Shown: positions 15,235 through 51,148 of the stretch, in pieces | Position numbering within the stretch: the first letter of the stretch is position 1 | Layout of the letters: each line of letters starts with the position of its first letter | IMG/VR virus record: IMGVR_UViG_2563366911_000001 | Length of the DNA: 64,000 nucleotides | DNA from: a virus | Lineage: Duplodnaviria; Heunggongvirae; Uroviricota; Caudoviricetes | Strand: one strand, 5' to 3' | The notes under the pieces: generated by a model | The model's database searches: none | What the model saw: only the letters and a program-made list of their open reading frames with translations | What the model was told of the DNA's origin: nothing | Translations under genes and position numbers: made by a program

Positions 15235-17965
<2,731 letters not shown>

Positions 17966-31444: not shown

Positions 31445-31468
31445 TTTCCATCCGGCATGGTCAATGAG

Positions 31469-34684: not shown

Positions 34685-34754
34685 CCTGTCACCTACTGAT
34701 TAGCCCATGTCAACTAATCAACGTGGAATATAATACCCTCGATTAAAGAAATAG

Positions 34755-34771
34755 CAATACATTAGAGCAAT
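34755..34771. promoter_or_regulatory. C1 operator upstream of lpa
   Basis: caatacattagagcaat, 3 mismatches. Confidence 0.55.
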
Positions 34772-34772
34772 T

Positions 34773-35816
34773 TTATCTAACGCTCGACGAGTGACTTGTG
34801 ATAGCGCCGACTCCAAGCGCGTAATCAAAGAACAATCGTTGATGCATCGCCAGCCTACCGTGCGTCTTCTCCCAATTATCGCGGTCACGCTCAATATCAC
34901 GCTGGCATGACTGGCACAGAGGAATTGCGTAAATGTCATGCGCGCATAATCGACTATGACGAACGATATAAGGCGTAATGTGAGCGCCAGCTCCCGCCGC
35001 TCCACACCCACAGCATGGACGGGAAGCAACAAAGTCCATGTACTCAGGTAATTTTAGCGATTGCAGTTTTGGTATTTTGAAATGCGCCATGCCAGGGTCG
35101 GAGTCAACATCCACAGGGCATACTTTTTCACGCATCGGCGCGGCGCGTTCTTCCATCATCTGAACATATGCTGTAGCGCGATCGTCATACGGGCGAATAT
35201 CCGCCTCTTTCAGAGGTCCGCTATCCTGCGTTGCGGCTTTCATCTTATTTATTGATATACGGCAAACTTCTTCCGGCATCAGGTGCATCATGTTGCGCAT
35301 GAAAGCCCACCAGCACAGTTCCTGAATACTTAAATCATGGCCATCTGAAAGCCCCATTTCCTGACGGGCGACATCCAGTATCCAGTTAACGCGATTATTA
35401 TGCAGCGTTTCTTTCAGCTCATTAAAACCACGCATCCGGTAATGGTTATCGTGATGCCAGCACAACAACACCGCGCTATTGTCTCGTTCTGCGTGGACAA
35501 TATGGTTGTCACACCAGCTACGATCTGCGGCCTGGCATTGCCCCTCTTTCCTGCGCAACCACGCCACCAGCGCGTCAATTCCACCAATACGGCGAAACAG
35601 TTCATCGCTGTTAAAAAACGGCTGCAACGCCTCATTTGTTGCCATAGTTTGCTCGGAAACAACGAGGCCGTCGTCCATGTGCTCGATTAACTCACGCGGC
35701 ACCGGCTCCATAATAAATTTACGGCCAGCCTCCACCAGCTTTCTGACTTCCTGATCCACTTTGAATGTGGCGACGCCAAGCTCTTTTTGTACAAAGGGAG
35801 TAATTACGGCTTTCAC
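34773..35816 (-). CDS. Hypothetical Cys-rich protein downstream of doc
   Basis: 347 aa; C-terminal CCGCG...H...CQSC cluster. Confidence 0.5.
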
Positions 35817-35843
35817 ATCACACCTTTCATCACTGATTGGGCT

Positions 35844-36044
35844 TTATCTGCTGCCCGGCATTCTCTGTTTAAGCACAACCATTTCCTGACGGCATAACAC
35901 AGCAATAGCAGTCCTGGCTCCAATTTGCTTACCAACCAGGTATTGCTTTACCTCGCGGCGACTCACGCCATCAAGAAGCATCTTTAACGCTTCACGGGAC
36001 AATTTGTTGTATTTGCGTGCCATTAATCTACTCCGCAGAACCAT
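35844..36044 (-). CDS. Small basic protein
   Basis: 66 aa. Confidence 0.35.
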
Positions 36045-36408
36045 ACAATCTACGCAACGTGTCGGCGACAGAAGATACAGATATCTCGCCAGTCGCAGCG
36101 CCTACAGTAAGGTCTGCCAGTTCAGGTGAATCAAATACCTGCACCCCGTTACGGCGTAGAAATAGCAGCGCGCTGTTTAGCGCGGTACGCTTATTGGCAT
36201 CATTGAATATATGCCCTCTCGCTGTAGCCACCAGGTAGGTGGCGGAGACTTCGAAAAGGTCGGTGATCTCTTCGTAGGCAACTCTGGCCTGAACTCTCCC
36301 GATAATGGCCTCTGCCCTGCCCGGATCTGACATGCCAGGCAGGCCGCCGTAGCGGCTTATATTCGCATCATGAAGCGCAATAAGTTCTTCCGGTGATATA
36401 TGCCTCAT
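36028..36408 (-). CDS. doc: Doc toxin (Fic-fold EF-Tu kinase)
   Basis: 126 aa with Fic motif HIFNDANKR. Confidence 0.9.
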
Positions 36409-36629
36409 TATCGGTTAACCAGTTCCTTGTTGGTGGAGTCCAGGGTGTCAAACAGGGATGCAAATTCAGCATCCAGCGCCGCTTTTTTGTAGGCTTCGAA
36501 AGTAGCCTTGCTGACAATTACTGCTGGCTCACGGCCTCTGCGGGTGATTTCAACCTCTTCCCCGGCTTCAACATTGTTGAGCACTTCAGAAAGGTTGCCG
36601 CGCGCGGTACGGAAGTTAATGGATTGCAT
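36408..36629 (-). CDS. phd: Phd antitoxin
   Basis: 73 aa from [16 protein letters not shown], coupled to doc. Confidence 0.9.
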
Positions 36630-36701
36630 AAACACCTCGTGTACTCGTTATGTGTACACAATTATAAACCTCACAGGCATAAAGCACCAGCCCTTTGCAG
36701 C

Positions 36702-37091
36702 TTAAATAACCGGACAATCATCAAACTCCCCACTTCGGGCATCATTGATGACATGAGTGATCACACCAAAAACAGCATTACTGCCCGTGCATCCATCGTC
36801 ATCTACTGGTAACGCCTCTTTCTTCCCGGTGCTTAAATCCTCCAGGTGCTGGCGCGGATACTTCCTGTATCTCTTTATGCGATATTCACCCTCCATAGCG
36901 CACACAAGCAGCGAACCATCAACTGGAGTAAGCGAAGAATCAACCACCAGCAAAGCACCCTGCAATATTCCCTCACGGTGATGGCTATCAGCTGCCCGCA
37001 TGAAGTAGGTTGCTGATGGATGTCTAATTATCTGCTGATCAAGAGAAATTCGGCTTTCAACATAATCCGCCGCAGGAGAAGGGAAACCCAT
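36702..37091 (-). CDS. humD: UmuD-like S24 peptidase (HumD)
   Basis: 129 aa, LexA/UmuD C-terminal fold; LexA box upstream. Confidence 0.8.
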   Translation of the reverse strand: MGFPSPAADYVESRISLDQQIIRHPSATYFMRAADSHHREGILQGALLVVDSSLTPVDGSLLVCAMEGEYRIKRYRKYPRQHLEDLSTGKKEALPVDDDGCTGSNAVFGVITHVINDARSGEFDDCPVI

Positions 37092-37109
37092 AGCGTTTTA
37101 CCTCAAAAA

Positions 37110-37129
37110 TACTGTTTATCTGTACAGTA
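37110..37129. promoter_or_regulatory. LexA (SOS) box upstream of humD
   Basis: tACTGTttatctgtACAGta, CTGT-N8-ACAG. Confidence 0.75.
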
Positions 37130-37265
37130 TACATTAAAGAAGCACCTTTGGTGCAAACGCGTTATGTACATCAACCACCGCTGATGATTTTTGTGCGCTT
37201 TGCTACTATTCATCACCGCGGGATCAGCGTAACCTCGTTGCCAATCAGTTAATAAGGAATTAGCT

Positions 37266-37850
37266 ATGCCTAATCGCATTCCTCTCGATCCTGTATTGCC
37301 CAAAAATTTTGACTGCACTCCTAACGAGAAACGCTCTAAAGCTCAGCTGGACGCCTGGTGGGACCATCCATATGGGGTTACACAACCTGACGGGAAAATT
37401 GTAGTTTATTGTCTGAATGGTGGGGCGTGGGACCGTCCATCCGTGCTTTGTTTGGCAGATAACTATGATGAAGCCTGTGAACTTGCCGAAAGACAGCAGG
37501 CAAGCTGGGTAAAAACACGGTCTGAACCGACATTCATGTTTTCAAAAGAACCGCCATTTATACTGGCGAGGATGCCGCAGCGACCGGATCATCAACAAGA
37601 AATTGTTGCTGAATTTTCCTCAAGGGATGAGATGAATCTCTTCTCATTAAAGCAGGAAGAAAGGGATCGCGTCGAAGTGTCTCCAACTCTCGACCACAAC
37701 CGGATGAACCTGGCCCAGCTCGCCTGGTACAGCAAAGAATTAGAGATGTCTATTTCCCGGCTTGAAAACGAAAAAGCCGCTATCCAAGTCCAGCACGAAG
37801 TAGTTCTGAACCGGATTAGAGAAATGCAAAACGATAACAGGGGATTTTGA
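37266..37850 (+). CDS. Hypothetical protein
   Basis: 194 aa, divergent from humD. Confidence 0.5.
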   Translation: MPNRIPLDPVLPKNFDCTPNEKRSKAQLDAWWDHPYGVTQPDGKIVVYCLNGGAWDRPSVLCLADNYDEACELAERQQASWVKTRSEPTFMFSKEPPFILARMPQRPDHQQEIVAEFSSRDEMNLFSLKQEERDRVEVSPTLDHNRMNLAQLAWYSKELEMSISRLENEKAAIQVQHEVVLNRIREMQNDNRGF

Positions 37851-38207
37851 ATGGCTAAAATCGAGTACCATCGCGATCGCGGTAATTACCTGGAAATATA
37901 CGATCATGAATCTCTTAACGATATCAACGATGCGTTATATGAATACTGTGAAAAAACGAGCATCACAGATGCACCTGATGCATTTGTCGAGCTGCCGGTA
38001 TATCTCCGCGACATCTATGCAATACGAACACCGCCCGTATCGGTGATTCACATTGGCTATGTCCGCCTGTCCATCAAAGAAGATGAAGATCGTTATATCG
38101 TGCGCCACTATACATTGGACAGAAAAGAACTTCCTAATGAATGGAACATGAGTAATTTCTACAACGGTGAATATGGCTTAAAATCCGCTAATAATTTACG
38201 GTCATAA
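37851..38207 (+). CDS. Hypothetical protein
   Basis: 118 aa, start abuts the upstream stop. Confidence 0.5.
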   Translation: MAKIEYHRDRGNYLEIYDHESLNDINDALYEYCEKTSITDAPDAFVELPVYLRDIYAIRTPPVSVIHIGYVRLSIKEDEDRYIVRHYTLDRKELPNEWNMSNFYNGEYGLKSANNLRS

Positions 38208-39069
38208 TCTATACAGGCATGTATAACAACAATGAGCCTATTAGCTGTCAACAACGTTATTTTCTCAAATAAGAAAAAGCAGAAAACAAATTGTTTAAGG
38301 TCACAAATTGTGGCCTTGATGGAGGAGGGAGGCTTATTGGCTATGGCTAAAAATCAAATTAGACACTTCATGTTGCTGTAGCTCATCAAGATCCGAGGCC
38401 ACAAAACCTTTTCCGAAAAACTTCACAAGTAACTCACTAGCCGCATCATTGTCACCTATTACACGAAAGTCATACGGCAACGTCGCAAGCTGACGATGTA
38501 ATCCTGCTGAGAAAGTCGAATCTAACAGCGCCCAGAATTCCCACCGCAGGATAATACTCGCCTCTTAATACTGTATATATGTTGTTACGATATGTTTTTC
38601 TGTCTCTAAAAAAAGATGTTAATAGAATGCTAACCATTGAAGGGGATAAAAATATACAATTCCAACAAACGTTATTTTTAACAATTTTTTTCTTTGCGTT
38701 GACTTTCCCGGACACCTTGTCTGACCGAAGGTGCGCGAAAGCCACTTTTTCCTTCCTGAGTTATCCACAAAGTTATGCACTTGCAAGAGGGCCATTTTCT
38801 ACATATTGTGGTGGCTAACAGATGAAATGAATGTAGATTAATTGAAGATAAGGAGAAAATTTGAGATGCAATCATGACGTTAATAGATAGGGTCTGCATT
38901 ACAGACCCCACCCGCATCAAGGAATTAGCCGTTCCCTGATGTTTTTCCGAAAACATGTGCCGTAAGCTCACGTTAACGACTTTCATTCACCGAATCCAAC
39001 TATATAGGGGTTGGGTTTCTACGTCAACGTGAGCAAGTGCACCTTTACATTTGACAAGGAACCACCTGA

Positions 39070-39207
39070 ATGAACGCTTTTTTTCAGTTCCTGAGTGCAT
39101 TTTTAGATGCGCCTATTATTAGCCAGATTCTGGCTATTATCCTCATCATCGTTTTGATTTTGCTTTTAAGGTCAGTAAAAGATGGAATTATGCACTGGCT
39201 TACTTAA
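39070..39207 (+). CDS. 45-aa hydrophobic peptide (type I toxin-like)
   Basis: MNAFFQFLSAFLDAPIISQILAIILIIVLILLLRSVKDGIMHWLT, below the ORF-track cutoff. Confidence 0.4.
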   Translation: MNAFFQFLSAFLDAPIISQILAIILIIVLILLLRSVKDGIMHWLT

Positions 39208-39282
39208 TGTTTCAGTGAAACATTAAAATCTCCTTGATGTGGAAACAATCATTTTCTGTATGTGCTGGTGGGCACCTGTAGT

Positions 39283-39645
39283 TCAGCTTTCGTTGACATT
39301 TAACTTCGTCTTTGCTTTCTCCACCAGCAACTTCCAGATGCCTATTTCATTAGCAGCCGCCTTGATGGCGGCATAAAAAGCATCTTGCTGATCGTAACGC
39401 TGGATCTGTTTTTTCAGTTTTGCCTCCACCAATTTAATTTCATTACGTGCTTTCTGAAGCCGCATCACCGCCCGGTTACGTCTGTTCTTGTATAGCGTGT
39501 TAATCTCTGACAATTGTTTTAATTTGCCAGCCTGACTGCGGATTATCGCCTCCCTGGCTTCTGCCGTGCGTCTCATCTGATCTCTTAAGAGTTCACCGTT
39601 TTCGATAATTCTTTCAAGGTGTTTGATGTGATCTGCAACTCTCAT
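39283..39645 (-). CDS. Coiled-coil protein
   Basis: 120 aa. Confidence 0.45.
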   Translation of the reverse strand: MRVADHIKHLERIIENGELLRDQMRRTAEAREAIIRSQAGKLKQLSEINTLYKNRRNRAVMRLQKARNEIKLVEAKLKKQIQRYDQQDAFYAAIKAAANEIGIWKLLVEKAKTKLNVNES

Positions 39646-40316
39646 ACTTCACCCTCGCTTGTATCACCAGCGTCCACCAACGACAATAAAGCCCTGGCCA
39701 TCTTATGAACCAACAGTGCATCAATAATGCCAAGCGTATGCCCCGGCTTAATGTTTAATGCCGCCTCAAGGTGACACCTTTCCAGGTCACTTTTCTCGGC
39801 TTGTTTATGATGATCTGGCGTAATAACGTCGCCCAAAACACGGCTAATTCTTTCTCGTAATTGCTGGGTGCCAGCACACTTGATCGCTGTATCGTGGAGA
39901 CGGTTAACCAGTTCGCGATAAACATGCGGCTTAATGCGGATACGTTCACCGGTGACGCCCTTTCCTGGCGCTGGCACCGAACTATCCGGAATATCCGGAT
40001 AGTTGCCAGCCTCGTAAGCTACCCGCAGCCAGTGCATGAATGTTTCAGTGGACACACAACCACAGTCCACATCGATTTTTCCGCGTTGCTGTTCCAGCCA
40101 CTGCTCAAAATTCAATCTACACGTATTACTTTCATGTTGCTCTTTTTGTCTCAAGGCCAGCACCTGTTGGGCCAGTTCCAGAACGATACCGGGTGACGCT
40201 AACCTCTCAAATTCCAATAAATAGTTTGCGTCAGGATGACAAGTAGCCTCGCCTGCAAAAAATACCAATTGCTGTAAGTATGCTGTCGTTAGAGTAGTCA
40301 TTTCTTTTTGCGCCAT
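39642..40316 (-). CDS. Hypothetical protein
   Basis: 224 aa, ATGA-coupled. Confidence 0.5.
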   Translation of the reverse strand: MAQKEMTTLTTAYLQQLVFFAGEATCHPDANYLLEFERLASPGIVLELAQQVLALRQKEQHESNTCRLNFEQWLEQQRGKIDVDCGCVSTETFMHWLRVAYEAGNYPDIPDSSVPAPGKGVTGERIRIKPHVYRELVNRLHDTAIKCAGTQQLRERISRVLGDVITPDHHKQAEKSDLERCHLEAALNIKPGHTLGIIDALLVHKMARALLSLVDAGDTSEGEV

Positions 40317-40672
40317 TTCTTTTCACATTCCTTAGTCCATTTTTCAATGTTCATTTTGGCAATATCGGTCATTCCATCACCTAAGAAATACTTTCTCCGG
40401 TATGTCTTGCACTTAAACCACACTACAACAGCCACCAGCCAGAAAATAAAAGGCCATACAGCAATACCAACGACAGCCGCGATAAAGCCCAATATCCATA
40501 AATGAAGCTCTCCAACTTCTGTTTCCGGCAATATTCTTAAAGAATTAAACAGCAGGCTGAACGAATGGTCGTATGCATTGGCAGTATAAGACATGCAATC
40601 CATATAATTAAAGTCATAGCCTGCGGCTGCCGCCCATAATGGGCGGTCAAGAAAATGTTTTAGTGTCATCAT
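40298..40672 (-). CDS. Membrane protein with basic tail
   Basis: 124 aa, two TM segments. Confidence 0.5.
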   Translation of the reverse strand: MMTLKHFLDRPLWAAAAGYDFNYMDCMSYTANAYDHSFSLLFNSLRILPETEVGELHLWILGFIAAVVGIAVWPFIFWLVAVVVWFKCKTYRRKYFLGDGMTDIAKMNIEKWTKECEKKWRKKK

Positions 40673-40678
40673 ATAAAT

Positions 40679-40972
40679 TTAAGGTTCAGACCAGTTATCT
40701 TCAATAGCAATGCTTAATCTTTGTAGCCATTCTGCTAATTTCAGCATTGCTTCTCTTTCGCTTAAACCACGAGGAAAATCATCAAGCGAAATTGTTGGCT
40801 TGAATCCACCGTAATTATCCATTTCAACTGTCAGATTTTGTTCCAGCACGGTATTTCTTACGCGGCTATTGTGCCGGAGCAAATATACTGAGCGTGATTT
40901 ATTGGTTTTGTGGTCTAGCTTATATTCGGTAAGTATCATCTGGCTTTTGCCATGACTATTACCTCTCCACAT
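40679..40972 (-). CDS. Hypothetical protein
   Basis: 97 aa from MWRGNSHG with SD gagg. Confidence 0.45.
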   Translation of the reverse strand: MWRGNSHGKSQMILTEYKLDHKTNKSRSVYLLRHNSRVRNTVLEQNLTVEMDNYGGFKPTISLDDFPRGLSEREAMLKLAEWLQRLSIAIEDNWSEP

Positions 40973-40979
40973 ACTTACC

Positions 40980-41102
40980 TCACTTAATAAAACAACTCCA
41001 TGCGTAGTTGATGATTTTTTCCCACGCAATATAAATCTGCACTCCGGCAGTAAAACCAAAGCCAACAATTGCTGAAAAAATCAAAACATTTACTTTTGAC
41101 AT
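40980..41102 (-). CDS. 40-aa membrane microprotein
   Basis: MSKVNVLIFSAIVGFGFTAGVQIYIAWEKIINYAWSCFIK; stop 7 nt before the next start. Confidence 0.35.
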   Translation of the reverse strand: MSKVNVLIFSAIVGFGFTAGVQIYIAWEKIINYAWSCFIK

Positions 41103-41150
41103 TATAAATTTTCTCTCGGTGTCGTAGGTGATAGCACCATAATTGATAAT

Positions 41151-41384
41151 TTAGTGAGTTAGCAGTTCCATTTTTTTGATGATTTCCGCATGAGCATCAT
41201 CGTTATCAACACTTAGCTCGTTTAATGCTTCTCGCACTACATCAACTTCTTCAGGCTGAAAGAAGTCGTCGCGGTAATCACCAAATAGAACCGAAACCAG
41301 CCTGCCACCAGCAACATCAAGATTGGCGCTAACAGGTGGCTCTTTGCCATCCTCAAATTCGACTACAAAAGTTATTTTTCCCAT
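41151..41384 (-). CDS. Small acidic protein
   Basis: 77 aa from MGKITFVV. Confidence 0.45.
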   Translation of the reverse strand: MGKITFVVEFEDGKEPPVSANLDVAGGRLVSVLFGDYRDDFFQPEEVDVVREALNELSVDNDDAHAEIIKKMELLTH

Positions 41385-41386
41385 CG

Positions 41387-41470
41387 TTACCACCAGCGAC
41401 AAATTGAATACAAACCCAGTGCTGCCGCCATCACAATTCCTACCGTGGTGAATGCTTCAGGCCAGCTCAT
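41387..41470 (-). CDS. 27-aa membrane microprotein
   Basis: MSWPEAFTTVGIVMAAALGLYSICRWW; ATGA overlap with the upstream stop. Confidence 0.35.
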   Translation of the reverse strand: MSWPEAFTTVGIVMAAALGLYSICRWW

Positions 41471-42183
41471 TGATTCACCTCCTGCGGCGGTTCTGGTAGC
41501 GGCATCCAGTGTGACGGTTTCCACGACGCACCAGGAATTATCCACCCATCATTAGCGTCAGGATGCCCGGGGATGTAAGTAGCCCATTTCATTCGCCAGT
41601 CACCTTTCCTGTCAAACTCCACGGCAACAAGAACGGCTGTTTTGGTATTCGGCATTCGCTCACTACAGCTTATCCAACCATCCGGAGTTGCCGGAGAGTT
41701 GCCCGATAGCTGGTTCAACTTGTAAGTTTGGCTTACAGGTTCGGCACCATGAAGCATGGCGTCGCTCCGCTCTATGCCATCCAGCGCGATTCGCAGTGCC
41801 TGAATTGTGGTAGAGCTATCGTTTGGGGCTATTCCATATCGCTCGAATACAGCTAAATGGTTGCGCATAATCTCAGGCGTAAGCTCTTTGTAAGCATAAG
41901 CAAGAGGCTCTGATGCATTATCCGGCACAACCGACGCAGGCGCGGCAGCATAAACAGGAATAACGTCCGCTTGCTCTTTATTGCTTTCATCCGTTAAAGA
42001 CCAGAATAATTTCCCGGCCGGATGTTTGAAAATATAAGCAACTGGATCTGCTTCCAGCGATGCCAGCGCAATTCGTGCCAGTTCTTCCGCTTCTTCTGCT
42101 GGCAGTACAACGTTGCTACCAGGTCCGTATGTTTCGCGCCACTGCTTGATTGTCAGTAGTCGCTCTTTGGTAATAGTGATCAT
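41467..42183 (-). CDS. DUF551-type prophage protein
   Basis: C-terminal ...SHWMPLPEPP; N-terminus paralogous to 43058-43420. Confidence 0.55.
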   Translation of the reverse strand: MITITKERLLTIKQWRETYGPGSNVVLPAEEAEELARIALASLEADPVAYIFKHPAGKLFWSLTDESNKEQADVIPVYAAAPASVVPDNASEPLAYAYKELTPEIMRNHLAVFERYGIAPNDSSTTIQALRIALDGIERSDAMLHGAEPVSQTYKLNQLSGNSPATPDGWISCSERMPNTKTAVLVAVEFDRKGDWRMKWATYIPGHPDANDGWIIPGASWKPSHWMPLPEPPQEVNQ

Positions 42184-42698
42184 GCCGCGTTTCCTTCTTT
42201 CTTATTAACAATTACACCGTCATATATTTCATTAAGGTGCCCTCTCAACTCCATGCGCCTTAATGCAGATAACATGTAATCGCATTCAACCTGCTTATTC
42301 CCAATAAAAGGTTTATCTTCAGGGTTACCCCAACAGCAATTCCCCTTGGGCCATCCATGTACTTTCCGTACTCTTCCGTTAACAACGTGAAGTAATCCCC
42401 AGCCGGGAGGTAAATCCTCAACTGAAATAATTCCCGGCTCACTAATAAAGAATCGCCAGTCGCCCATTCCAAGAGACGGATTTTTACGAAAACGCTTTTT
42501 TCTATCTGCCAACAAGTCAGCACGAGAACACTTCGCCTCTATCAGGCATGATGCTGAATTTCTGAATCCCATAGCATCTGGCTGTTCTCCGGTACTGGTT
42601 ACAGCTATAAAGCGGTCATGAAAACAAACCTTGAACCCGTTGCGCTTAAGGAACTTATACGCAATCTGACAGAGTTCGCGGTGTGTTAACGCCATATC
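42180..42698 (-). CDS. PD-(D/E)xK / VRR-NUC-like nuclease
   Basis: QPDAMGF...LIEAKCSRAD; start at MALTH with SD aaggag. Confidence 0.5.
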   Translation of the reverse strand, partial: DMALTHRELCQIAYKFLKRNGFKVCFHDRFIAVTSTGEQPDAMGFRNSASCLIEAKCSRADLLADRKKRFRKNPSLGMGDWRFFISEPGIISVEDLPPGWGLLHVVNGRVRKVHGWPKGNCCWGNPEDKPFIGNKQVECDYMLSALRRMELRGHLNEIYDGVIVNKKEGNAA

Positions 42699-42881
42699 AC
42701 TCTCCTTTAGTGCGCAAGTGGTTTTTCCAGCGGTTTTGCGCCGCACTGGGCTTTTTGCAACAACTGTGACCCATCACCCCGCAACACCCCGCCAACCTCA
42801 CTCGTCTGTTACTAATCCTCAACCAGCGCCAGATCCCAACACCGTTTCTGCGAGCTAACAGAATCTTTGCCTTACGGTTTT

Positions 42882-43058
42882 TCATCGCTTTGCTCTCCTG
42901 CGTCTCTTTGCTGCTCGTCGTGCCGCTGCAATACCGGTATGGCGGCGCTTTGGTGCCGGGATGATGTTGTCAGCCATCAGGACATGTGGCTTTGCAATTA
43001 GCGCAGAAGCCCAAAAACGAGTCGGGTACGGTAACAAGCCGAAAAATGCCACACGCAT
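42882..43058 (-). CDS. 58-aa hydrophobic-N, Arg-rich-C microprotein
   Basis: SD ggaggtgag; TAATG overlap with the upstream stop; not in the ORF track. Confidence 0.4.
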   Translation of the reverse strand: MRVAFFGLLPYPTRFWASALIAKPHVLMADNIIPAPKRRHTGIAAARRAAKRRRRAKR

Positions 43059-43420
43059 TACTCACCTCCCTTACCCTGAAGCATGGCAGCGCGGCAGGCG
43101 TTCCAGCCATCAACATAATCAAACGTATTGCTATCGTCTGGCTCGATTTCATCCGGCACTACCGGCTCTGGTTGGATAGTGACGTTGGCAAAGGCAGCAC
43201 GCAAACCGGCCTTAATTTCCTCTACTTCATCAGCGCCTAGCGATGAATCTGACAATGCGTGATGGAATGCGTAAGCCATGTCGTCGTTTACTGCAACCGG
43301 TTCGGCTTCCAGTGATGCCAGCGCAATTCGTGCCAGTTCCATTTGTTCGCCACGGGTAAGCCCGTTATCAAGCGGATTTTTAATGAATAATTCGATACGT
43401 TCTTTGGTAATAGTGGTCAT
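43058..43420 (-). CDS. Small acidic prophage protein
   Basis: 120 aa, paralog of the N-terminus of 41467-42183. Confidence 0.5.
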   Translation of the reverse strand: MTTITKERIELFIKNPLDNGLTRGEQMELARIALASLEAEPVAVNDDMAYAFHHALSDSSLGADEVEEIKAGLRAAFANVTIQPEPVVPDEIEPDDSNTFDYVDGWNACRAAMLQGKGGE

Positions 43421-43626
43421 TTGTTAATCCTCAAAACTTTATGCCCGGGCGCAAAAGCACGTGTTTTGTCTTTACTTATTCGCCACCCGTCTTTACGGGC
43501 CTCTTTTGCACAACCAGACCATGACGTACCGATATACTCACCGAAGTCTGGCACTGGATATACACCTTCCGTACACTGGCGGCAGTCACAATAGAGATGC
43601 ATGGTGTAACTTGCAGCGATAGCCAT
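43417..43626 (-). CDS. Small Cys-rich protein
   Basis: 69 aa from MAIAASY; C..C..C. Confidence 0.45.
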   Translation of the reverse strand: MAIAASYTMHLYCDCRQCTEGVYPVPDFGEYIGTSWSGCAKEARKDGWRISKDKTRAFAPGHKVLRINK

Positions 43627-43627
43627 A

Positions 43628-44260
43628 TCACTCTCCTTTGATGCGAATGCCAGGGGCGCGTGGCACATTAACTTCCACGATGCGCACAGTTGGTTTGTAC
43701 ATCTCAATCGCAGTCAGCCAGTCAGCGCCAGTCATGCGCTTTTCTGCATCGCCATTAGTCCACTTAACCGGTACACCAATAGCCTTCATCGCGATTTCTA
43801 TTTCCCCGGCAATGGCGCTTTTTCCGCAACCAGTAAAACCAGATACAACGACCAGAACTTCACCTTTGGCTGGTTTTATTTCCCGCTCCTCCAGTTCAGC
43901 AATGCGCTTACTCCCATCCGAGATAACACCTTCGTAATACTCACGCTGCTCGTTGAGTTTTGATTTTGTCTCCTCAAGCTCAACTCTCAGCTTCCCAACC
44001 GTAAGCGCAATATCCTCGTTCTCCTGGTCGCGGGATTTGATGTATTGCTGGTTCCTTTCCCGTTCATCCAGTAGTGCCAGCACGGTTTCTGGTCCGGCCA
44101 GAAATTTGAAGGCGTTGAGCGCATCAATATCCACACCGTAATCTTTAAGTTCCTGTTCACTTAACAAATCATCATCAGCTGGCAACATTAACAGGCGTTC
44201 CATTGCTGGAATTGCACGTTCCGCCACCTCACGCAGTGCCTGGTAATTAATTTCGCTCAC
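43628..44260 (-). CDS. Ead/Ea22-like protein (copy 1)
   Basis: MSEINYQALREVAERA...; coiled-coil middle. Confidence 0.55.
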   Translation of the reverse strand: MSEINYQALREVAERAIPAMERLLMLPADDDLLSEQELKDYGVDIDALNAFKFLAGPETVLALLDERERNQQYIKSRDQENEDIALTVGKLRVELEETKSKLNEQREYYEGVISDGSKRIAELEEREIKPAKGEVLVVVSGFTGCGKSAIAGEIEIAMKAIGVPVKWTNGDAEKRMTGADWLTAIEMYKPTVRIVEVNVPRAPGIRIKGE

Positions 44261-44970
44261 TGGTTGCCTCCTTTGCGAAGCTGGGCAGCAAAGTCAACTA
44301 ACCACTCAGTCATTTCAACCTTCCCTACCAGGTCTGAACCAGGGTGCATACAGCAATCACTCTGCGCCGCTTTGAAATCCTTACACTCATATTCTTGGGC
44401 CACCAGATTTTTTGCAGCTTCTATAGCAGCATCCACCCCCTGCGCCCGCACTTCAGACAGGAAAGCATCGGTGGCTGGAATTTGCGGCATCCCTCCGTCT
44501 GTTGCGCAGATATACGCATCAGATATTTCATCCTGCCGGCCATCAAACACGTAGCAACAGCCCCTGATAAACAGCTTCATGGAGGCATTCTCCACTGCCA
44601 GCGCCGTGCGATTACCCTCCAGCTCTGCAATGCGCTGTTTTGCGGCATCCAGTTCAATCGACAATTTTTCCAACTGCTCTTGATGCTTCTTGTATTCCTG
44701 ATATGCGTGCCAAGACTGACCTTTGCGCACACTATTAGTGATATCAGTAATCTGTTCTGGTGTTAGCGTGGTCAGTGGCTGTGATGGGAAAATAAGCACT
44801 TTCCCGGAATCCCAATCAAAACCAGCGTGAATTGACTGAACCTCAACTGAAGGTGTTGAACCAATGCTGCCAGGCGAATGAACAACGATTGTTACATCCA
44901 TATCGCGACGATGGCTGTGGTTGTTGGACAAAATACGATTCACCAACTCAGAAAATTTGGAAAATTTCAT
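44257..44970 (-). CDS. Ead/Ea22-like protein (copy 2)
   Basis: Shares ...IPATDAFL(S/A)E(V/I)RA... with copy 3. Confidence 0.55.
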   Translation of the reverse strand: MKFSKFSELVNRILSNNHSHRRDMDVTIVVHSPGSIGSTPSVEVQSIHAGFDWDSGKVLIFPSQPLTTLTPEQITDITNSVRKGQSWHAYQEYKKHQEQLEKLSIELDAAKQRIAELEGNRTALAVENASMKLFIRGCCYVFDGRQDEISDAYICATDGGMPQIPATDAFLSEVRAQGVDAAIEAAKNLVAQEYECKDFKAAQSDCCMHPGSDLVGKVEMTEWLVDFAAQLRKGGNQ

Positions 44971-45290
44971 GCTGATTCCCCTTTCTCTGCTCTCTCCTGT
45001 CGGAACATCACTATCATCAGGTCGCCTTTTGTCGCTATCCTGGCTGTTGTACCTGGTTCAATGCGGCTAAGCTCAAATGCGTCATAGAACGCTTCTAATG
45101 CCTTCTGGCGTAGTTCCTGTTTGCGCCGTTTTTTCCACTGTTTTAGGAAAATGGAACCCAGCCATCGCCATGTGCGGGACATGATGTAAAGCCAACCGAG
45201 AAGTGCCAGACCGGTATTTAGGAGCGTATCGATCGTTATTGTCGTGTCGATATTCACTGGCTGCTTCCTTTGCGAATCTGTTCCGCCCAT
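44967..45290 (-). CDS. Small membrane/basic protein
   Basis: 107 aa as drawn; true start may be MSRTWRW. Confidence 0.4.
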   Translation of the reverse strand: MGGTDSQRKQPVNIDTTITIDTLLNTGLALLGWLYIMSRTWRWLGSIFLKQWKKRRKQELRQKALEAFYDAFELSRIEPGTTARIATKGDLMIVMFRQERAEKGESA

Positions 45291-45961
45291 TCTTCAAGGG
45301 ATTTCTCCGCATATTCACCAGACAGGCCATCAATCGGATGCGCTTCATTAGCCAACTCTTCTTTCGCTGACAAAATCATGCGTGTAACGTCGAAAACTTC
45401 ACGCAAAGACTTATTGATAAATCCGTGATTGAACGCAGCAGCAAGACGGCTGGCGGTATAGTTAATCCCCTCGTTGCGTGCTTCCGCACGAATTTCAGCC
45501 AGAAAAGCATCGGTAGCTGGAGTTTCGCTGTGGTGTAGGGCATCGTTGATAATCATTGCAGCAACACCAGCCTGCCCTGCATCCGTGACCGACACATGCT
45601 CAAGAGTTACGGCCATTGCGTGTTTCAGCCCGGCGTTCTCTGCCACCAGCGCAGCGAGATTAGTCTCAAGCTCTGAAATTCGGCACGTGGCATCAATATT
45701 TGTGTCCTCCAAGCACTTAATTTCACCAAGCAGCTCCAGTGCAACCTTTGGGTTGAACGCGGCAACATGACGAGCGTTGTTCTCTGCATTTTTCTGTCCA
45801 TCAAAGCCGGTCCATTTGATAACGTCTTCACATCGTTCATCACCGGGCGTGTGCACCGCATAAGTACCAGTATCCGTCGAAATAAATGCGACCCATTCGT
45901 CTGGTGTTGCCTTTTCTGCCGCCTCACGCAGTACCTGATAGTCAATTGTCATTCTCGCCAT
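45254..45961 (-). CDS. Ead/Ea22-like protein (copy 3)
   Basis: MARMTIDYQVLREAAEKATP... Confidence 0.55.
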   Translation of the reverse strand: MARMTIDYQVLREAAEKATPDEWVAFISTDTGTYAVHTPGDERCEDVIKWTGFDGQKNAENNARHVAAFNPKVALELLGEIKCLEDTNIDATCRISELETNLAALVAENAGLKHAMAVTLEHVSVTDAGQAGVAAMIINDALHHSETPATDAFLAEIRAEARNEGINYTASRLAAAFNHGFINKSLREVFDVTRMILSAKEELANEAHPIDGLSGEYAEKSLEEWAEQIRKGSSQ

Positions 45962-46593
45962 CCTTCACAGTTGTAATCACTACAGCCTTCAAAATCATAT
46001 GGGCTGTACTGCCAGGTTATTTTTCCGCAATGCGGACAATTCCAACGCACCTTCCCGCTTCGCGACTTCTTTCTTCTGTTCTGCTCTTTCAACCAGTCAG
46101 GCATGACCAAACCTGCGCCCTGAACCATTGTTCTGCGGTTAAAGTTATTGATATTGAACGTCCGGCGCTTTGCTGCATCAGCAATGGAAAATGGCAACCA
46201 AACTATTCCTGGTTCGTTTTTGTTGGCGACGCTAAAGATGGTCGCTTTACTGAAGTCATCTGTTGGCAATCCACCGTGTTGAAGCCAGTAAACATCGTTG
46301 CCGTTCCAGCTACCTTTTTTGTAGGCCACATACGCAGTGCAATCTGACTCAATCAGGCTTTCTGTAGGGATGTACTGGCAATCAACGTGCCACACAGCCA
46401 TTGCATCCACACTATCGGCACAAACAGGCTGATCGATATCTCGCCCACAATTCCAGGCTTTTTGGGCTTCTTCCAGCGTGTAAACATGAGCGCGATCGAT
46501 ATCAGAACTGTAACCATTGCCGTTATGGCAATGGAATGAGGCGTTATTACCCACAGTTTCACGCAAGCACATCATGTAAAAACGGTTACTCAC
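45949..46593 (-). CDS. Hypothetical protein with C-terminal zinc ribbon
   Basis: 214 aa, CPHCG...C..C. Confidence 0.5.
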   Translation of the reverse strand: MSNRFYMMCLRETVGNNASFHCHNGNGYSSDIDRAHVYTLEEAQKAWNCGRDIDQPVCADSVDAMAVWHVDCQYIPTESLIESDCTAYVAYKKGSWNGNDVYWLQHGGLPTDDFSKATIFSVANKNEPGIVWLPFSIADAAKRRTFNINNFNRRTMVQGAGLVMPDWLKEQNRRKKSRSGKVRWNCPHCGKITWQYSPYDFEGCSDYNCEGWRE

Positions 46594-46870
46594 TGGTTGC
46601 CTCCGCTTCCCACGTTTTCAGACTTTCACCACAGAACGGGCAAAATGAAACTCGAATAGGCGATTTAGAAAATTCACCAGACCGCAGCATGATCAGGTCT
46701 CGTGAATGAATTAATTCATGGTTATAGATTTTGTATTTCAGCAGACCTTTTCGCGTCGTGTATTCAGCGTCATGCTCCAGGGATTGTGCCAACGCCGCGC
46801 ACGGTTCTATCTTGTTGCCATTAATTTGGCATTTTGACTCACTCACTGGTTGCCCCCTGAATACGCTCAA
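46586..46870 (-). CDS. Small zinc-finger protein
   Basis: 94 aa, C..C / CPFCG. Confidence 0.45.
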   Translation of the reverse strand: MSVFRGQPVSESKCQINGNKIEPCAALAQSLEHDAEYTTRKGLLKYKIYNHELIHSRDLIMLRSGEFSKSPIRVSFCPFCGESLKTWEAEATSE

Positions 46871-47420
46871 ACTCGATTACCCACACCCAGGGATTAGCGT
46901 TCCAACTATCTTCGCCATAAATTGATTTCCATAGGCTACGGAAACCTGGGTAATGCTTATCGCCAATGAGGGTCGATTCTGTTGGTGCGCCCTCAGTCCT
47001 TGCATCGCATTCGCTGATATCGTTCAACCGCTCAACGCGCACGTTGGTAATTTCCAGAAGAATGCGCGATGCCCAGCGCGGCATGTGAATTGATGGCGTC
47101 CACTTTTCTGATACTGGTTTATTACAAACCTCGACCGGAACCCGGTGCGTTTGTTCTGTCCAGGAGTTACGCACACTTGCGCGATAAACCAGCGTTGCGA
47201 CGTCCGTCGCTTTGCCATGTACCCGGTAGGTTTCGCGAACCCAAATACGATCGCCCGGTTGACCATATGGACAATGCTTGGCAAGCAACTCTGCGGCCAC
47301 TGCCCGTCCATAGAATTTTTCTTCAACAATCCTGCGAGTCTGTGTTTTATTCCCGCCAAGAATTGCCCGGACCATCTCATCGTTAAAAATCATGCCGCGC
47401 TCTTTCACTTCGCCTTTCAT
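46839..47420 (-). CDS. ASCH/PUA-like domain protein
   Basis: N-terminus MIFNDEMVRAILGGNKTQTRR. Confidence 0.45.
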   Translation of the reverse strand: MKGEVKERGMIFNDEMVRAILGGNKTQTRRIVEEKFYGRAVAAELLAKHCPYGQPGDRIWVRETYRVHGKATDVATLVYRASVRNSWTEQTHRVPVEVCNKPVSEKWTPSIHMPRWASRILLEITNVRVERLNDISECDARTEGAPTESTLIGDKHYPGFRSLWKSIYGEDSWNANPWVWVIEFERIQGATSE

Positions 47421-47429
47421 GCATCCCCC

Positions 47430-47516
47430 TTACCCATGTGCGACGATGCCGCCAAAAGTGATAGAGAACAGCCAGAAATAGATCGCGGCCATAATGATTT
47501 TGAATGCCGTGTTCAT
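47430..47516 (-). CDS. 28-aa membrane microprotein
   Basis: MNTAFKIIMAAIYFWLFSITFGGIVAHG; SD aggag; stop 9 nt before the next start. Confidence 0.35.
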   Translation of the reverse strand: MNTAFKIIMAAIYFWLFSITFGGIVAHG

Positions 47517-47598
47517 ATTTTCAGCTCCTGTGATTGATTGGATACATGCCGCGCCTTGCGGCATGTTTTTATTTTCACTTTCTCTGTTTTAAAAATCA

Positions 47599-47615
47599 AG
47601 ATTTATTAGAGCAAT
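47599..47615. promoter_or_regulatory. C1 operator (1 mismatch)
   Basis: agatttattagagcaat. Confidence 0.8.
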
Positions 47616-48121
47616 TATTGTTGATGAAGAAGCGCGTTTTCATACTCCCTGACCATTAACGTAAGTACGCCGTGACTCCTGAAAATACGCGCCACTTCAA
47701 TCTTATCTTCCAGCGCGAACGCGATTTTACTTAGACCAATTTTCTTAAGGAGATCAATCTTTGCTGGGCCGTCATTTCTGTCATCGGTGGCAGGACGCAT
47801 AGATAGCAAAGGCTCAGCCCCGTTTGTTACGTACTTCCGCAGCCAGGCTCGTGTTTTATCCCTTGCGATCTCACAGCGCCCAGTTACAAACCAGACCGTG
47901 TAAACGTTAAATAACTGGCGCACCATATCAATAACTGGAGTGATGGGTGTATCGGTGTCACAGGCGAGATTAAACTCGTTCCAGTCCTTTGTTAATGCAC
48001 CTTTACCTGGTGGCGGAAGCAAATGCAGTCTGTCTTCAGTTGCCTCTGATATTGTTCCATCAATATCGACTATGACGATATACGGACGTTCCTGGCGTGC
48101 GTGTTTATTGAAAATACTCAA
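47615..48121 (-). CDS. HAD-superfamily phosphatase (Pnk 3'-phosphatase-like)
   Basis: Motif I VDIDGT near the N-terminus; 168 aa. Confidence 0.6.
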   Translation of the reverse strand: MSIFNKHARQERPYIVIVDIDGTISEATEDRLHLLPPPGKGALTKDWNEFNLACDTDTPITPVIDMVRQLFNVYTVWFVTGRCEIARDKTRAWLRKYVTNGAEPLLSMRPATDDRNDGPAKIDLLKKIGLSKIAFALEDKIEVARIFRSHGVLTLMVREYENALLHQQ

Positions 48122-48193
48122 ATGCCCTCCTCATTGGACGAAAAAAATGCTGGTGGGCGCACTCCACCAGCATTAAAAGTGACACTGTAACTA

Positions 48194-49456
48194 TCAGCGG
48201 ACGTAAATAGTGCCGCCGTTCTCTTTTTCCCATGCATCGCTACGTGCATAGCAAACATCGAGAAGTCTTCTTGCCGCTGTTTCCTCTAAACCCAATTCGA
48301 CAACCAACTGCTCATGACGGCGGGTAACCACATCAAACAGGGTATGCAGCCCTTTAGCTGCCAGATCATCAATAAATTCCGGTTCGAACGGCAGCTCTGC
48401 CTCTGCCAACATAACCTCTTGCGCCCACTCAACTCGACGGACTAGTTCCGGGCGGCGGCTTTCCATCTCTTTACAGATCAATTCATGGAAGAACTCTACC
48501 CAACCTTCCGGCTGGAACTCGCGGAAAATGGCCAACGGCTGGAAGTTTGGCATCAACCATTCGTTGATCCGGATATCAATGGCATAGCCCATGTCGCAGC
48601 AGAACTGATAAGCAAAGTCCAGCTTAGAAACGATATAAGGACGCTCGTTATTGAACTCTTTAGGCGATGAGATCCCATAAGCCAGGAGGCGCGGGAAGAA
48701 GGAGATTTGCCCTAACGTCGGATGAAGTTTGCTTGCAGGGAAACGGCGCTCAGTAATGCCATACATTTCCTTCTTGAGCGTCGCAAATTTGGCATTCTCA
48801 TTAACCAGCGCGGTAACCTCTGCTTTTTTATTAGCAAATGCCACGCGCGCTTCGCTTGCATCTTTAATAGTTTTTTTGAGCTGTTGGTTAAGGTCGGCGA
48901 CCTGCTTACGCAGTTCCTGTCGCTCGCTTTTAGCTTTGTTATAGCGTTTCTCAAGGTTAAAAGGATCAAGTTTCATGATCTCTTTATATTGAGATTTTAG
49001 CGTTGAAATCTGTGAGTTCCGCAGTTCAACCATCGCGGTCATTTCATTGAGTTTTGTTTCCAGCTCAATGCTTATACGTTCGGCATTATCAGCACGCTGG
49101 TTGGCGTCATGTGTCGCATCGTCGATCGCGTCCTGTTGCTGGCGTTTCAAATGTTCAATTTGCAGCTGAAGCTCTTCAATTTCTTTACCCTTCAGACCGA
49201 GATCCAACTGCATATTTTCAGCTGCATCTACCAGGGAGTTATGGCTATCAGCTTCTGCGTTATAAACATCAATAAGCTGTGCGTGAAGCATCTCCGCTGA
49301 CTGAACCGCATTATCAAAAAAACGTGCTGTGAGGTCATCACAACTAACGCGGCGTTGCGCGGCCCGGATGTTCTGGATAATGGCCGGGATACCGGCATTC
49401 AGGACGTCAGGGATAGATACATTTTCGATTGATTGGTTTTGTGCTGAAGTGCTCAT
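48194..49456 (-). CDS. Coiled-coil protein with a C-terminal globular domain
   Basis: 420 aa, long heptad-rich middle. Confidence 0.5.
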   Translation of the reverse strand: MSTSAQNQSIENVSIPDVLNAGIPAIIQNIRAAQRRVSCDDLTARFFDNAVQSAEMLHAQLIDVYNAEADSHNSLVDAAENMQLDLGLKGKEIEELQLQIEHLKRQQQDAIDDATHDANQRADNAERISIELETKLNEMTAMVELRNSQISTLKSQYKEIMKLDPFNLEKRYNKAKSERQELRKQVADLNQQLKKTIKDASEARVAFANKKAEVTALVNENAKFATLKKEMYGITERRFPASKLHPTLGQISFFPRLLAYGISSPKEFNNERPYIVSKLDFAYQFCCDMGYAIDIRINEWLMPNFQPLAIFREFQPEGWVEFFHELICKEMESRRPELVRRVEWAQEVMLAEAELPFEPEFIDDLAAKGLHTLFDVVTRRHEQLVVELGLEETAARRLLDVCYARSDAWEKENGGTIYVR

Positions 49457-49457
49457 T

Positions 49458-49676
49458 TCAAAGTTCCGTATTAGCTTGTGCTTCGGTCATTTTTCCTAAG
49501 TATGAAGGTGGAAGGACTACGCAATTTGTATCCAGCCCCTCACCCAGGGCAGCCTGTAAAATTCTGGCTAAGGAGAGTCTCTTGTTGCGATACCGGGTGA
49601 TGACATGCCTGATATCGCCGGACGGCGTAACAAAGGCGATCAGCCAGTAGTGATATTTCCGTCGGAATGGCCACAT
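49458..49676 (-). CDS. Small protein, first gene after the C1 operators
   Basis: 72 aa. Confidence 0.4.
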   Translation of the reverse strand: MWPFRRKYHYWLIAFVTPSGDIRHVITRYRNKRLSLARILQAALGEGLDTNCVVLPPSYLGKMTEAQANTEL

Positions 49677-49690
49677 AGTGCACCTTATGG

Positions 49691-49707
49691 ATTGCTCTAA
49701 TAAAAAA
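49691..49707. promoter_or_regulatory. C1 operator
   Basis: attgctctaataaaaaa, core exact. Confidence 0.7.
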
Positions 49708-49735
49708 CGTGATGAGTGTACATCACGTTTTAAAA
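49706..49735. terminator. Bidirectional hairpin between the two operators
   Basis: aacgtgatg-agtgta-catcacgtt with flanking A and T tracts. Confidence 0.55.
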
Positions 49736-49739
49736 ATAT

Positions 49740-49756
49740 GGAATTATTAGAGCAAT
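49740..49756. promoter_or_regulatory. C1 operator (inverted partner)
   Basis: ggaattattagagcaat. Confidence 0.65.
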
Positions 49757-49757
49757 A

Positions 49758-50459
49758 TTATTCTGATTCTTGCTCAAAAAACGCGCTAATGAGAGGAAGC
49801 CAATCCTCTGACACTTCACGCGGTCGCGGTTTGCCATGGAAGAAGATTATTCGGCAGTCTTTTGGTAATGCCCCATTCCCCCTGGAGTAGCGCGCACTTG
49901 CATATTTCGAACCAGGTTCCACAACATCGGCCTTGTAACTTACAAACCATCCCGGATACAGATCCTGAAATGCTGGTGTATCATCGCCCATAACCTTCCG
50001 TAAGAACCCCTGATCACCCCAGCATTCAGTAGTAACACAACGAGCAATCCAACCTTCCGGATCTTGCCAGAATGCACTCCAGATATGCGCTTTTACACTA
50101 TTTGGTATCCACAGGGCACCGCTGCCACGATATTGTGGATGGTAAAAATCCCTAAGCATGGTGAAGCTGGTTGGTGGATGCTCTAGGATTGGGCGTATAT
50201 CACCGGCAATAACCGTGTCCAAATCCAGATAGAACAGATCATCGGTTATATCCGGTCGGAACAACTCTATTTTCGCCCACCAGCCACGGCACTTTTGCCA
50301 CTGGTTGATCAATGGGACAACTTTGACGCCAGGTACATGTAAACGCTTCAGGTCTGTCAGGCAAATAATTTCATAGCCTTTTGGCAGTTGATTAACCAGC
50401 CACTGCACATCGGAAGCGTTATAGTCACCACCAGAGCGAAAAACTAAAGCAATCTTCAT
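49758..50459 (-). CDS. DxD-motif protein, possibly a GT-A-like glycosyltransferase
   Basis: 233 aa with LDLDTV. Confidence 0.35.
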
Positions 50460-51148
50460 GCTGCACCATCACCTTTCACTTTCATCAATGTCAGGTTTCC
50501 GCAAAATACGGCACCAGTGTCGATATACTGCTGATTCCAGAATGTCTTCGGGCTTTTCACCGGAGTGTGACCAAAGATAAAACGATCTGCGCCCGAAATT
50601 TCGCCACCAATATCATCCATCGAATCACTGATACGCTCGCGCGCCCAGACAACGTTGAAAAGCGGCACCTCCTTACCGAATTGGTATTCATTATCCGGAT
50701 AGTCGGCATGGGCTATAACGATAGTTTCTTGCCCGGTGTTCAACTCAATGATATAGGGCAGACGCTTTACCAGCTCCACCAGCGCCCAGGCTAATATTTC
50801 CTGATCAGTGTCCAGCATGAAGAACCATTGTCCGCCATTCATTAGCCAGTTATTCACGTTGCCATCTGGACTTAACGCATCAATCATCAGCCGCTCATGG
50901 TTCCCCATCACTGCCCTGAACCAGGGCATCTGCAATAGTTCCAGACATTCGACATTTTCAGTACCGCGATCGATAAGGTCGCCGACCGATATCAGTAAAT
51001 CCTGCGCCGGGTCAAAATCCACACGATGGAGTTCGGACATCAGTCTGGTGTAGCAACCATGCAGATCACCAACAACCCAGACATTCCTGTATTTGGTACC
51101 GTCGATACGGTGATAAATTGTGGGTGCCATCATGTATTCTTCAGCCAT
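50456..51148 (-). CDS. Calcineurin-like metallophosphatase (Ser/Thr phosphatase or ApaH type)
   Basis: GDLHG, GDLIDRG and GNHE motifs. Confidence 0.85.

Follow-up and report, generated by a model that had tools for sequence, protein, structure and literature searches.

A probable C1-repressed cargo operon of lambdoid parts in the pmgT slot of a P1-family phage-plasmid

What a P1-like element is doing with some 20 small genes, most of which P1 itself lacks, and where these genes came from, is the question raised by positions 39283-47564 of the DNA analysed here, a 64,000-nucleotide stretch (the window) from the tailed-phage record IMGVR_UViG_2563366911_000001. The original prediction described this array as lambdoid-type accessory genes set in a P1-type backbone, hypervariable and shaped by domain shuffling. 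The reading preferred here, to which we assign a probability of roughly 0.72, is that these genes fill the pmgT operon slot of a P1-family phage-plasmid and form an early, C1-repressed, dispensable cargo operon of lambdoid mosaic composition.

The setting of the array was established by comparison with P1. Identity by blastn was 98.5% over 47329-59908 (from gene 26 across pap into the start of pmgT) and 94.6% over 38662-40017 (the 3' part of pmgU, pmgV and upfM/N/O), and 29875-37833 matched P1 lxr through lox. The C1-operator consensus was found 13 times in the window, with 0.39 matches expected, and the genes surrounding the array are pap, pmgS, phd-doc, humD and lpa. Flanks of 94-98.5% identity, the 13 operator matches and this gene context bear out the P1-type backbone that had been claimed, and by homology the window is that of a P1-family phage-plasmid. 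The closest record is an IncY Escherichia coli plasmid, CP099272.1, which is 99.8% identical over 33284-46604.

Within this backbone, the array starts directly downstream of the C1 operator Op88 (OpmgT) and the pmgT promoter, and its last gene is pmgV. This operator, with its promoter and leader, is near-identical to the region annotated in P1 as OpmgT/P1pmgT/P2pmgT, and the promoter, a leader hairpin and a 28-residue leader peptide are held in common with P1 almost base for base. Between the two ends, 7.3 kb (40017-47329) stands in place of 0.6 kb of P1 pmgT. The first full-sized gene, g19, has only its first ∼30 codons in common with P1 pmgT, the P1 junction lying at 47329. With pap and Op88 upstream, pmgV and upfM-O downstream and an order collinear with that of P1, the locus thus occupies the pmgT slot.

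A program-made list of open reading frames (ORFs) places every credible ORF of 39283-47564 on the minus strand, so the earlier description of about 20 co-directional small genes holds. The array comprises 19 protein-sized genes (g01-g19, with a doubtful 52-residue ORF, g06, skipped) and three small hydrophobic peptides, two of which have strong Shine-Dalgarno sites. Neighbouring genes mostly overlap by 1-19 nucleotides or lie 1-9 nucleotides apart, the largest gap being 48 nucleotides, and a search for a strong minus-strand intrinsic terminator inside the array found none. The features are listed below from the operator to the distal end, with E values for PHROG and Pfam matches.

47599..47615, minus strand: Op88/OpmgT, the C1 repressor operator, which overlaps the pmgT promoters and would be the control point of the array; ATTGCTCTAATAAATCT, one mismatch to the consensus.
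47430..47516, minus strand: g20s, 28-residue hydrophobic peptide, first ORF of the operon; AGGAG Shine-Dalgarno site; a longer, 44-residue reading extends to 47564.
46839..47420, minus strand: g19, 193 residues, equivalent of P7 Upf86.8, possibly ASCH/PUA-like; phrog_874 at 2.7e-86.
46586..46870, minus strand: g18, 86-94 residues, equivalent of P7 Upf87.4, with C-x9-C ... CPFC motifs; phrog_4030 at 1.4e-43.
45949..46593, minus strand: g17, 214 residues, equivalent of P7 Upf87.6, with a zinc-ribbon-like knuckle; phrog_2457 at 1.6e-119.
45254..45961, minus strand: g16, Ead/Ea22-family protein, 235 residues; Pfam PF13935 at 4e-24, 86 bits against a cutoff of 27.
44967..45257, minus strand: g15, small DUF4752 protein; Pfam PF15944 at 2.4e-42, above the gathering score.
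44257..44970, minus strand: g14, 237 residues, novel N terminus and a C-terminal half paralogous to g16; phrog_368 at 1.7e-74.
43628..44260, minus strand: g13, Ead/Ea22-family protein, 210 residues, with a different C-terminal domain; Pfam PF13935 at 4.7e-38 over residues 2-124, 131 bits.
43417..43626, minus strand: g12, 69 residues, Cys-rich (CxCxxC...C); phrog_926 at 2.1e-36.
43058..43420, minus strand: g11, 120 residues, N-terminal module in common with the DUF551 protein g07 (BLASTP).
42882..43058, minus strand: g10, 58-residue basic ORF of doubtful coding status; phrog_13831 at 2.7e-39; ratio of nonsynonymous to synonymous polymorphism (pN/pS) ∼1.
42697..42885, minus strand: g09, 62-residue basic protein; phrog_1380 at 7.7e-32.
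42180..42695, minus strand: g08, predicted nuclease of PD-(D/E)xK fold, 171 residues from M18 of a 188-residue ORF starting at 42746.
41467..42183, minus strand: g07, DUF551 protein, 238 residues, with an N-terminal "TITKERL" module; Pfam PF04448 at 2.2e-21 over residues 169-234.
41387..41470, minus strand: g6s, 27-residue hydrophobic peptide with a transmembrane-like segment; AGGAGG Shine-Dalgarno site; start overlapping the g07 stop (ATGA).
41151..41384, minus strand: g05, 77 residues, acidic; phrog_3876 at 7.2e-53.
40980..41102, minus strand: g4b, tentative 40-residue hydrophobic ORF; transmembrane-like segment, weak ribosome-binding site.
40679..40972, minus strand: g04, 97 residues; phrog_1258 at 4.8e-49.
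40298..40672, minus strand: g03, 124-residue membrane protein; phrog_2638 at 5e-63; transmembrane segment scoring 2.6 on the Kyte-Doolittle scale.
39642..40316, minus strand: g02, 224 residues, the C-terminal ∼110 corresponding to P1 PmgU (blastn to P1) and the N-terminal half variable; residues 102-223 match phrog_21459 at 3.6e-80.
39283..39645, minus strand: g01, PmgV homologue, with which the slot has its conserved distal end; nucleotide identity of 97.5% with P1 pmgV; phrog_4403 at 1.3e-77.

PHROG families were matched by 18 array ORFs with E values of 1e-32 to 1e-122, every such family being annotated "unknown function"; a PHROG search with g6s gave no match. In a codon-level comparison of the array with its relatives, a rough one because related sequences were re-used and are not independent, the pooled pN/pS was 0.23, with 0.06 for g08 and ∼1 for g10; the value for the flanking backbone gene pap was 0.10-0.21. 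Given the pooled value, the array ORFs other than g10 are, on codon-level signal, genuinely coding and under purifying selection. Scans of the array proteins against Pfam, NCBIfam and PADLOC returned Ead_Ea22, DUF551 and DUF4752 as the only matches inside the array; an HAD_PNKP match in the same scans belongs to pap, outside it.

The origin of the cargo emerged from megablast searches. Parts of the array were found in 556 phage records, mostly of Shiga toxin (Stx)-converting and other lambdoid phages. Among 5426 complete E. coli genomes, 3713 had pieces of it, at a total of 8080 chromosomal places. The Stx2c phage Stx2_EH1904 carries the intervals 41474-42886, 42866-43072, 43971-44483 and 45485-46604 at 96-99.6% identity to the window. 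In that phage the order is int (5109-6284), the shared blocks (7501-12625), abc2 (13548-13838), a cI-like repressor gene (16502-17215) and replication gene O (from 18086), with the blocks on the same strand as the cI-like gene and upstream of O. By this gene order, the blocks occupy the classical early-left accessory region (exo-xis in lambda, ea in P22). Phages of the phiV10/TL-2011b type have the same modules placed after the replication genes, and the slot of the sister plasmid CP099272.1 carries a DUF1382 gene of the lambda orf63 family. At single genes, g17 is 98.8% identical to its Stx2c phage counterpart, and g07, intact in the window, is 99.6-99.8% identical to a gene that is split in the Stx2c phage by one copy of an insertion sequence (IS)-like unit. 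Judged by ORF pattern, this unit (two ORFs of 108 and 296 residues) is present in Stx2_EH1904 in two copies, at 7781-8994 and 13963-15176. The blocks of 96-99.6% identity lying between int and abc2 confirm the lambdoid character ascribed to the cargo, which, on the evidence of nucleotide identity, is not specific to P1 and combines, as a mosaic, modules of the early-left accessory region of lambdoid phages (lambda exo-xis, P22 ea).

The composition of the slot was found to be extremely unstable. Of 1343 matching plasmid records only 2, and of the 3713 matching E. coli genomes only 1, covered at least 80% of the array, as the claim of a hypervariable slot would have it. Between the same flanks, the slot spans about 1.4-1.5 kb in P1, about 4.3-4.4 kb in P7 and up to ∼9.3 kb among the listed plasmids, the array in the window measuring 8.1 kb, and its content differs in each of P1, P7, RCS47, D6 and CP099272. 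The gene-for-gene conservation in all P1 relatives that had been named as grounds for giving up the prediction was therefore not observed.

Junctions of homology fall both at gene boundaries, e.g. 46604 and 42886, and inside genes, namely at 40017 in g02, 47329 in g19, 43971 in g13, 44483 in g14 and 45485 in g16. In the Stx phage a single 220-residue gene joins the g16 N terminus to the g14 C terminus, the expected product of recombination within the C-terminal segment that the two genes share. In-frame fusions of an Ead/Ea22 N terminus to the g08 nuclease domain are found in the homologues P0087, P0100 and P0009, and a fusion of g08 to a DUF551 C terminus in the homologue P0020. The suggestion of domain shuffling is well supported by these natural fusions, together with the junctions inside genes.

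Taken together, the preferred reading is of an operon that would be transcribed from the conserved pmgT promoters overlapping Op88. C1 would silence it in the plasmid-prophage state, with expression following infection or induction, and read-through would carry transcription across ∼20 packed, probably translationally coupled genes to pmgV. The modules come from recent exchange with prophages resident in the chromosome, through recombination where gene ends, or N- or C-terminal domain segments, are held in common. Their products would comprise Ead/Ea22-type scaffolds with interchangeable C-terminal domains, the predicted nuclease, a DUF551 protein, small membrane peptides and Cys-rich proteins. 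These most likely act early on host physiology and on the balance between lysis and lysogeny, as the exo-xis genes of lambda and Stx phages do, and some may counter host defences. The exo-xis genes modulate lysogenization, induction and host survival, and Ea22 is a prolysogenic tetramer with N-terminal, coiled-coil and C-terminal domains (PMC3824215, PMC7093339, PMC10834534).

Several points weigh against this reading. The Ead/Ea22 C-terminal domains of the array are unlike the solved lambda domain, so the prolysogenic role is not simply transferable. Internal promoters or Rho-dependent termination are possible within 8 kb, and the pN/pS values carry the non-independence noted above. Part of the array may also be decaying, given the pN/pS of ∼1 for g10 and the resemblance of g11 to a paralog cut short.

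These last signs of decay are among those expected if the array were largely non-functional hitch-hiking DNA, i.e. selfish or decaying prophage fragments in a permissive slot. The absence from g11 of the DUF551 domain of its paralog, the existence of g08 and g09 as one fused protein in phrog_9263 and the lack of listed genes over 42183-43417 in CP099272.1, possibly pseudogene calls, point the same way. However, the major ORFs are all intact, tightly packed and under purifying selection (0.23 pooled, 0.06 for g08), and their families are widespread in Enterobacterales with catalytic or Cys residues conserved, which leaves this explanation with a very slight chance. The least probable explanation is that implied by the names pmgT, pmgU and pmgV, for which the P1 annotation reads "putative morphogenetic function": that the array assists assembly of the P1 virion. 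Although pmgR and pmgS adjoin the array, CRISPR interference (CRISPRi) found P1 pmgT, pmgU, pmgV and pap to be non-essential (PMC10695390), and P1 is unimpaired when pmgT, pmgU or pmgV is knocked down; the historical label is thereby disfavoured. Wholesale replacement of the content between otherwise near-identical phages, and the presence of the same genes in lambdoid and phiV10-like phages whose virions, siphoviral or podoviral, are unrelated, also oppose a morphogenetic role, and this reading can be regarded as largely refuted already.

Defence offers two further explanations, opposite in sense. The array could be a dedicated anti-defence island, whose early genes inhibit or evade restriction, abortive-infection or nuclease systems and owe their hypervariability to an arms race. 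An early C1-controlled promoter (if expression follows it), the extreme turnover, the many small uncharacterized proteins with a predicted nuclease and modular N-terminal scaffolds bearing swapped effector domains, and the proximity of a shared block in the Stx phage (∼0.9 kb) to the anti-RecBCD gene abc2 are all in keeping with this. Against it, no characterized anti-defence family was matched in Pfam, NCBIfam or the PDB, these being general libraries searched without anti-defence hidden Markov models, and what has been published on exo-xis and Ea22 phenotypes bears on lysogeny, induction and host survival rather than on evasion of defence. We regard the island reading as unlikely. The enrichment for anti-defence and host-takeover functions that had been predicted found no support in these searches or in a PADLOC scan, and a literature search on DUF551, DUF4752 and anti-defence returned nothing relevant. 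Very unlikely is the converse, that the array is lysogenic-conversion or defence cargo expressed from the plasmid prophage to shield the host by superinfection exclusion or an abortive-infection nuclease. Defence and resistance cargo is known in P1-like variable regions (PMC10879196), and the array encodes membrane peptides and a PD-(D/E)xK nuclease. Yet the sole recognizable promoter is overlapped by the C1 operator, implying repression in lysogeny, the lambdoid homologues lie in an early lytic pL-type operon, and PADLOC defence models gave no match at E up to 0.01 for the 10 largest array proteins.

The cargo-operon reading can be extended, in a speculative and unlikely form, to the design of the proteins. 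The Ead/Ea22 N-terminal and coiled-coil region, and likewise the "TITKERL" module of DUF551-type proteins, might be a general oligomerizing or targeting scaffold onto which temperate enterobacterial phages swap effector domains, such as a small P-loop-like domain and the MmcB-like PD-(D/E)xK nuclease, free-standing in the array and fused to Ead elsewhere, and the C1-controlled pmgT slot a cassette-exchange site that samples the lambdoid repertoire for counter-defence and host takeover.

The individual family assignments are less uniform than originally predicted. Of three supposed Ead/Ea22 paralogs, g13 and g16 match Pfam PF13935; g14, related in its C-terminal half, has no Pfam match. The latter is therefore not an Ead_Ea22 member but only a C-terminal paralog of g16, with which it has 125-140 C-terminal residues in common (28% identity, E 3e-7, by BLASTP) and the family phrog_368; the DUF4752 gene g15 stands between the two. 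The C-terminal domain of g13 (residues ∼136-210) contains a Walker-A-like GFTGCGKS motif and a weak match to the SRP54 GTPase P-loop (E 0.017), and at ∼75 residues is too short for a full nucleoside triphosphatase. Comparison of the Ead/Ea22 C-terminal domains with the solved lambda Ea22 C-terminal domain gave no sequence match, and searches of PDB sequences with g08, g19, g13, g14, g16 and the g19 family profile returned nothing meaningful. Similarly, of two supposed DUF551 paralogs the assignment stands for g07 (76.9 bits against a cutoff of 22) and falls for g11, which has no Pfam match, lacks the DUF551 domain and has in common with g07 residues 1-88 (41% identity, E 6e-8, by BLASTP).

The several zinc ribbons that had been proposed reduce to one with conservation behind it. 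In g17, a C-terminal basic stretch is followed by a CxxC...Cx4C knuckle in which C186, C189 and C204 are invariant, and C209 at least 90% conserved, among 22 homologues. For g12 and g18 the evidence consists of Cys motifs, kept among close relatives (P7 and D6 for g18, RCS47 and D6 for g12); Pfam and NCBIfam hits for both were sub-threshold, with no zinc-finger match at family level for g18. An old note on P7 names the g17 equivalent a "putative tyrosine phosphatase", which was rejected: the motif lacks the CX5R arginine and no phosphatase family was matched.

Evidence for the predicted ASCH-like protein, g19, is weak. Its AlphaFold2 model, built from a shallow alignment, has a predicted local distance difference test score of 51, and a fold search with that model was no more than suggestive. 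An hhalign comparison of the g19 family with the RCS47 protein labelled ASCH by the Prokaryotic Genome Annotation Pipeline (PGAP) was not significant. That RCS47 gene is a different one, not found among the window ORFs, and the PGAP "ASCH" label in related plasmids is therefore not about g19. The g19/PmgT-N family is very large: a search of 1.84 billion proteins at E up to 0.001 gave 44,109 cluster representatives. Its invariant residues include F12, K25, T28, R29, R30, G56, W164 and W180; a Pfam, NCBIfam or PDB relative was not detectable by sequence. In the RefSeq record of P7 (NC_050152.1), the name "DNA primase" for upf86.8, the g19 equivalent, has no family evidence, and "minor tail protein" for upf89.0 is likewise unsupported; the neighbouring names "Holliday junction resolvase" and "alpha-2,3-sialyltransferase" look like unsupported automated transfers.

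The nuclease prediction fared better. The g08 protein has the alpha-beta-beta-beta-alpha-beta core of the PD-(D/E)xK fold together with the conserved D ... (D/E)xK residues, and can confidently be called a predicted nuclease of this fold, although no Pfam or NCBIfam model recognizes it. The closest known structure class is that of SPO1766 (PDB 3dnx), of PD-(D/E)xK restriction-endonuclease-like fold, which we take to represent the MmcB/DUF1052 family. Unlike SPO1766, g08 belongs to a phage and prophage family largely confined to Enterobacterales. A 230-residue family, phrog_9263, matches g09 at positions 1-61 and g08 over the remainder. The two also exist as separate families, phrog_1380 for g09 and phrog_631 for g08, and split and fused forms therefore both circulate. 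The gene table of CP099272.1 lists no genes for 42183-43417, possibly reflecting pseudogene calls there.

Other observations concern the leader, the small proteins and the downstream flank. The g20s peptide, MNTAFKIIMAAIYFWLFSITFGGIVAHG, is 100% conserved in P1, P7, RCS47 and CP099272, none of which has a coding sequence annotated there, and just upstream of it the leader forms a 10-bp GC-rich hairpin at 47544-47566. At least four small membrane proteins are encoded in the slot (g03, g20s, g6s of 27 residues and g4b of 40 residues), with the DUF4752 protein g15 a possible fifth by eye; g6s and g4b occupy gaps in the array that would otherwise be non-coding. The P1 hot gene, a homologue of Pol III theta, is absent from the window. 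The interval where P1 has it, 37833-38662 between upfM-O-like sequence and lxr, is occupied by a gene of P7 type, equivalent to upf93.6 (37851-38207), and by AT-rich DNA (GC 0.40) without convincing ORFs.

Much of this has precedent. The segment pmgT-pmgU-pmgV-upfMNO-hot-lxr-humD is "region 8", one of eight regions described as highly variable among P1-like phage-plasmids, and in JL22 a cluster with an Ea22-like gene among its members stands in place of pmgT (PMC9603915). Pfeifer and Rocha found ∼30% of genes in P1-like elements to be recently recombining (PMC10879196), and the GenBank notes of P7 already cite similarity to P22 Ead and CP-933U genes, those of D6 to genes of phiV10, ES18, 933W and mEp phages. 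Given these descriptions, the locus is an unusually long new version of a known slot: real but ordinary phage mosaicism, whose position, variability and lambdoid affinities were already known. It carries little weight as a discovery; it is a clean, well-delimited example of an operon rebuilt from chromosomal prophage parts by domain-level recombination, in which one repressor-controlled promoter of a phage-plasmid would drive a cargo operon. Its ∼20 uncharacterized early genes, among them the confidently predicted nuclease and the modular Ead/Ea22 proteins, form a compact set for counter-defence or lysis-lysogeny screening. Because P1-like elements also spread resistance genes, slots that accept foreign DNA are of some applied interest.

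Among P1-like elements, one of the closest counterparts is the slot of P7, with the same flanks, strand and operator, where upf87.6, upf87.4 and upf86.8 correspond to g17-g19 at 98-99% identity; the RCS47 slot has genes equal to g02-g04 and g19. Compared with P1 (about 1.4 kb) and P7 (about 4.3 kb), the array in the window is longer, its combination of modules is almost unique and hot is absent downstream. Outside this group, the array is most like the exo-xis/ea region of lambda and P22 (ea22, ea8.5, orf61, orf63, orf60a; Ead, Eaa). The gene families are alike (Ead/Ea22, DUF551, DUF4752), and both sets consist of small, overlapping, co-directional, non-essential genes that belong to an immediate-early, repressor-controlled operon (PMC7093339, PMC10834534). 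In contrast to the lambdoid region, the array belongs to a myovirus-plasmid of P1 type, where control lies with C1 instead of CI/N, and it has no exo or xis flank; it is thus not in the exo-to-xis location under pL/CI control. Set in a P1 backbone under a C1 operator, it is therefore exo-xis-like in its genes and probable working, not in its position.

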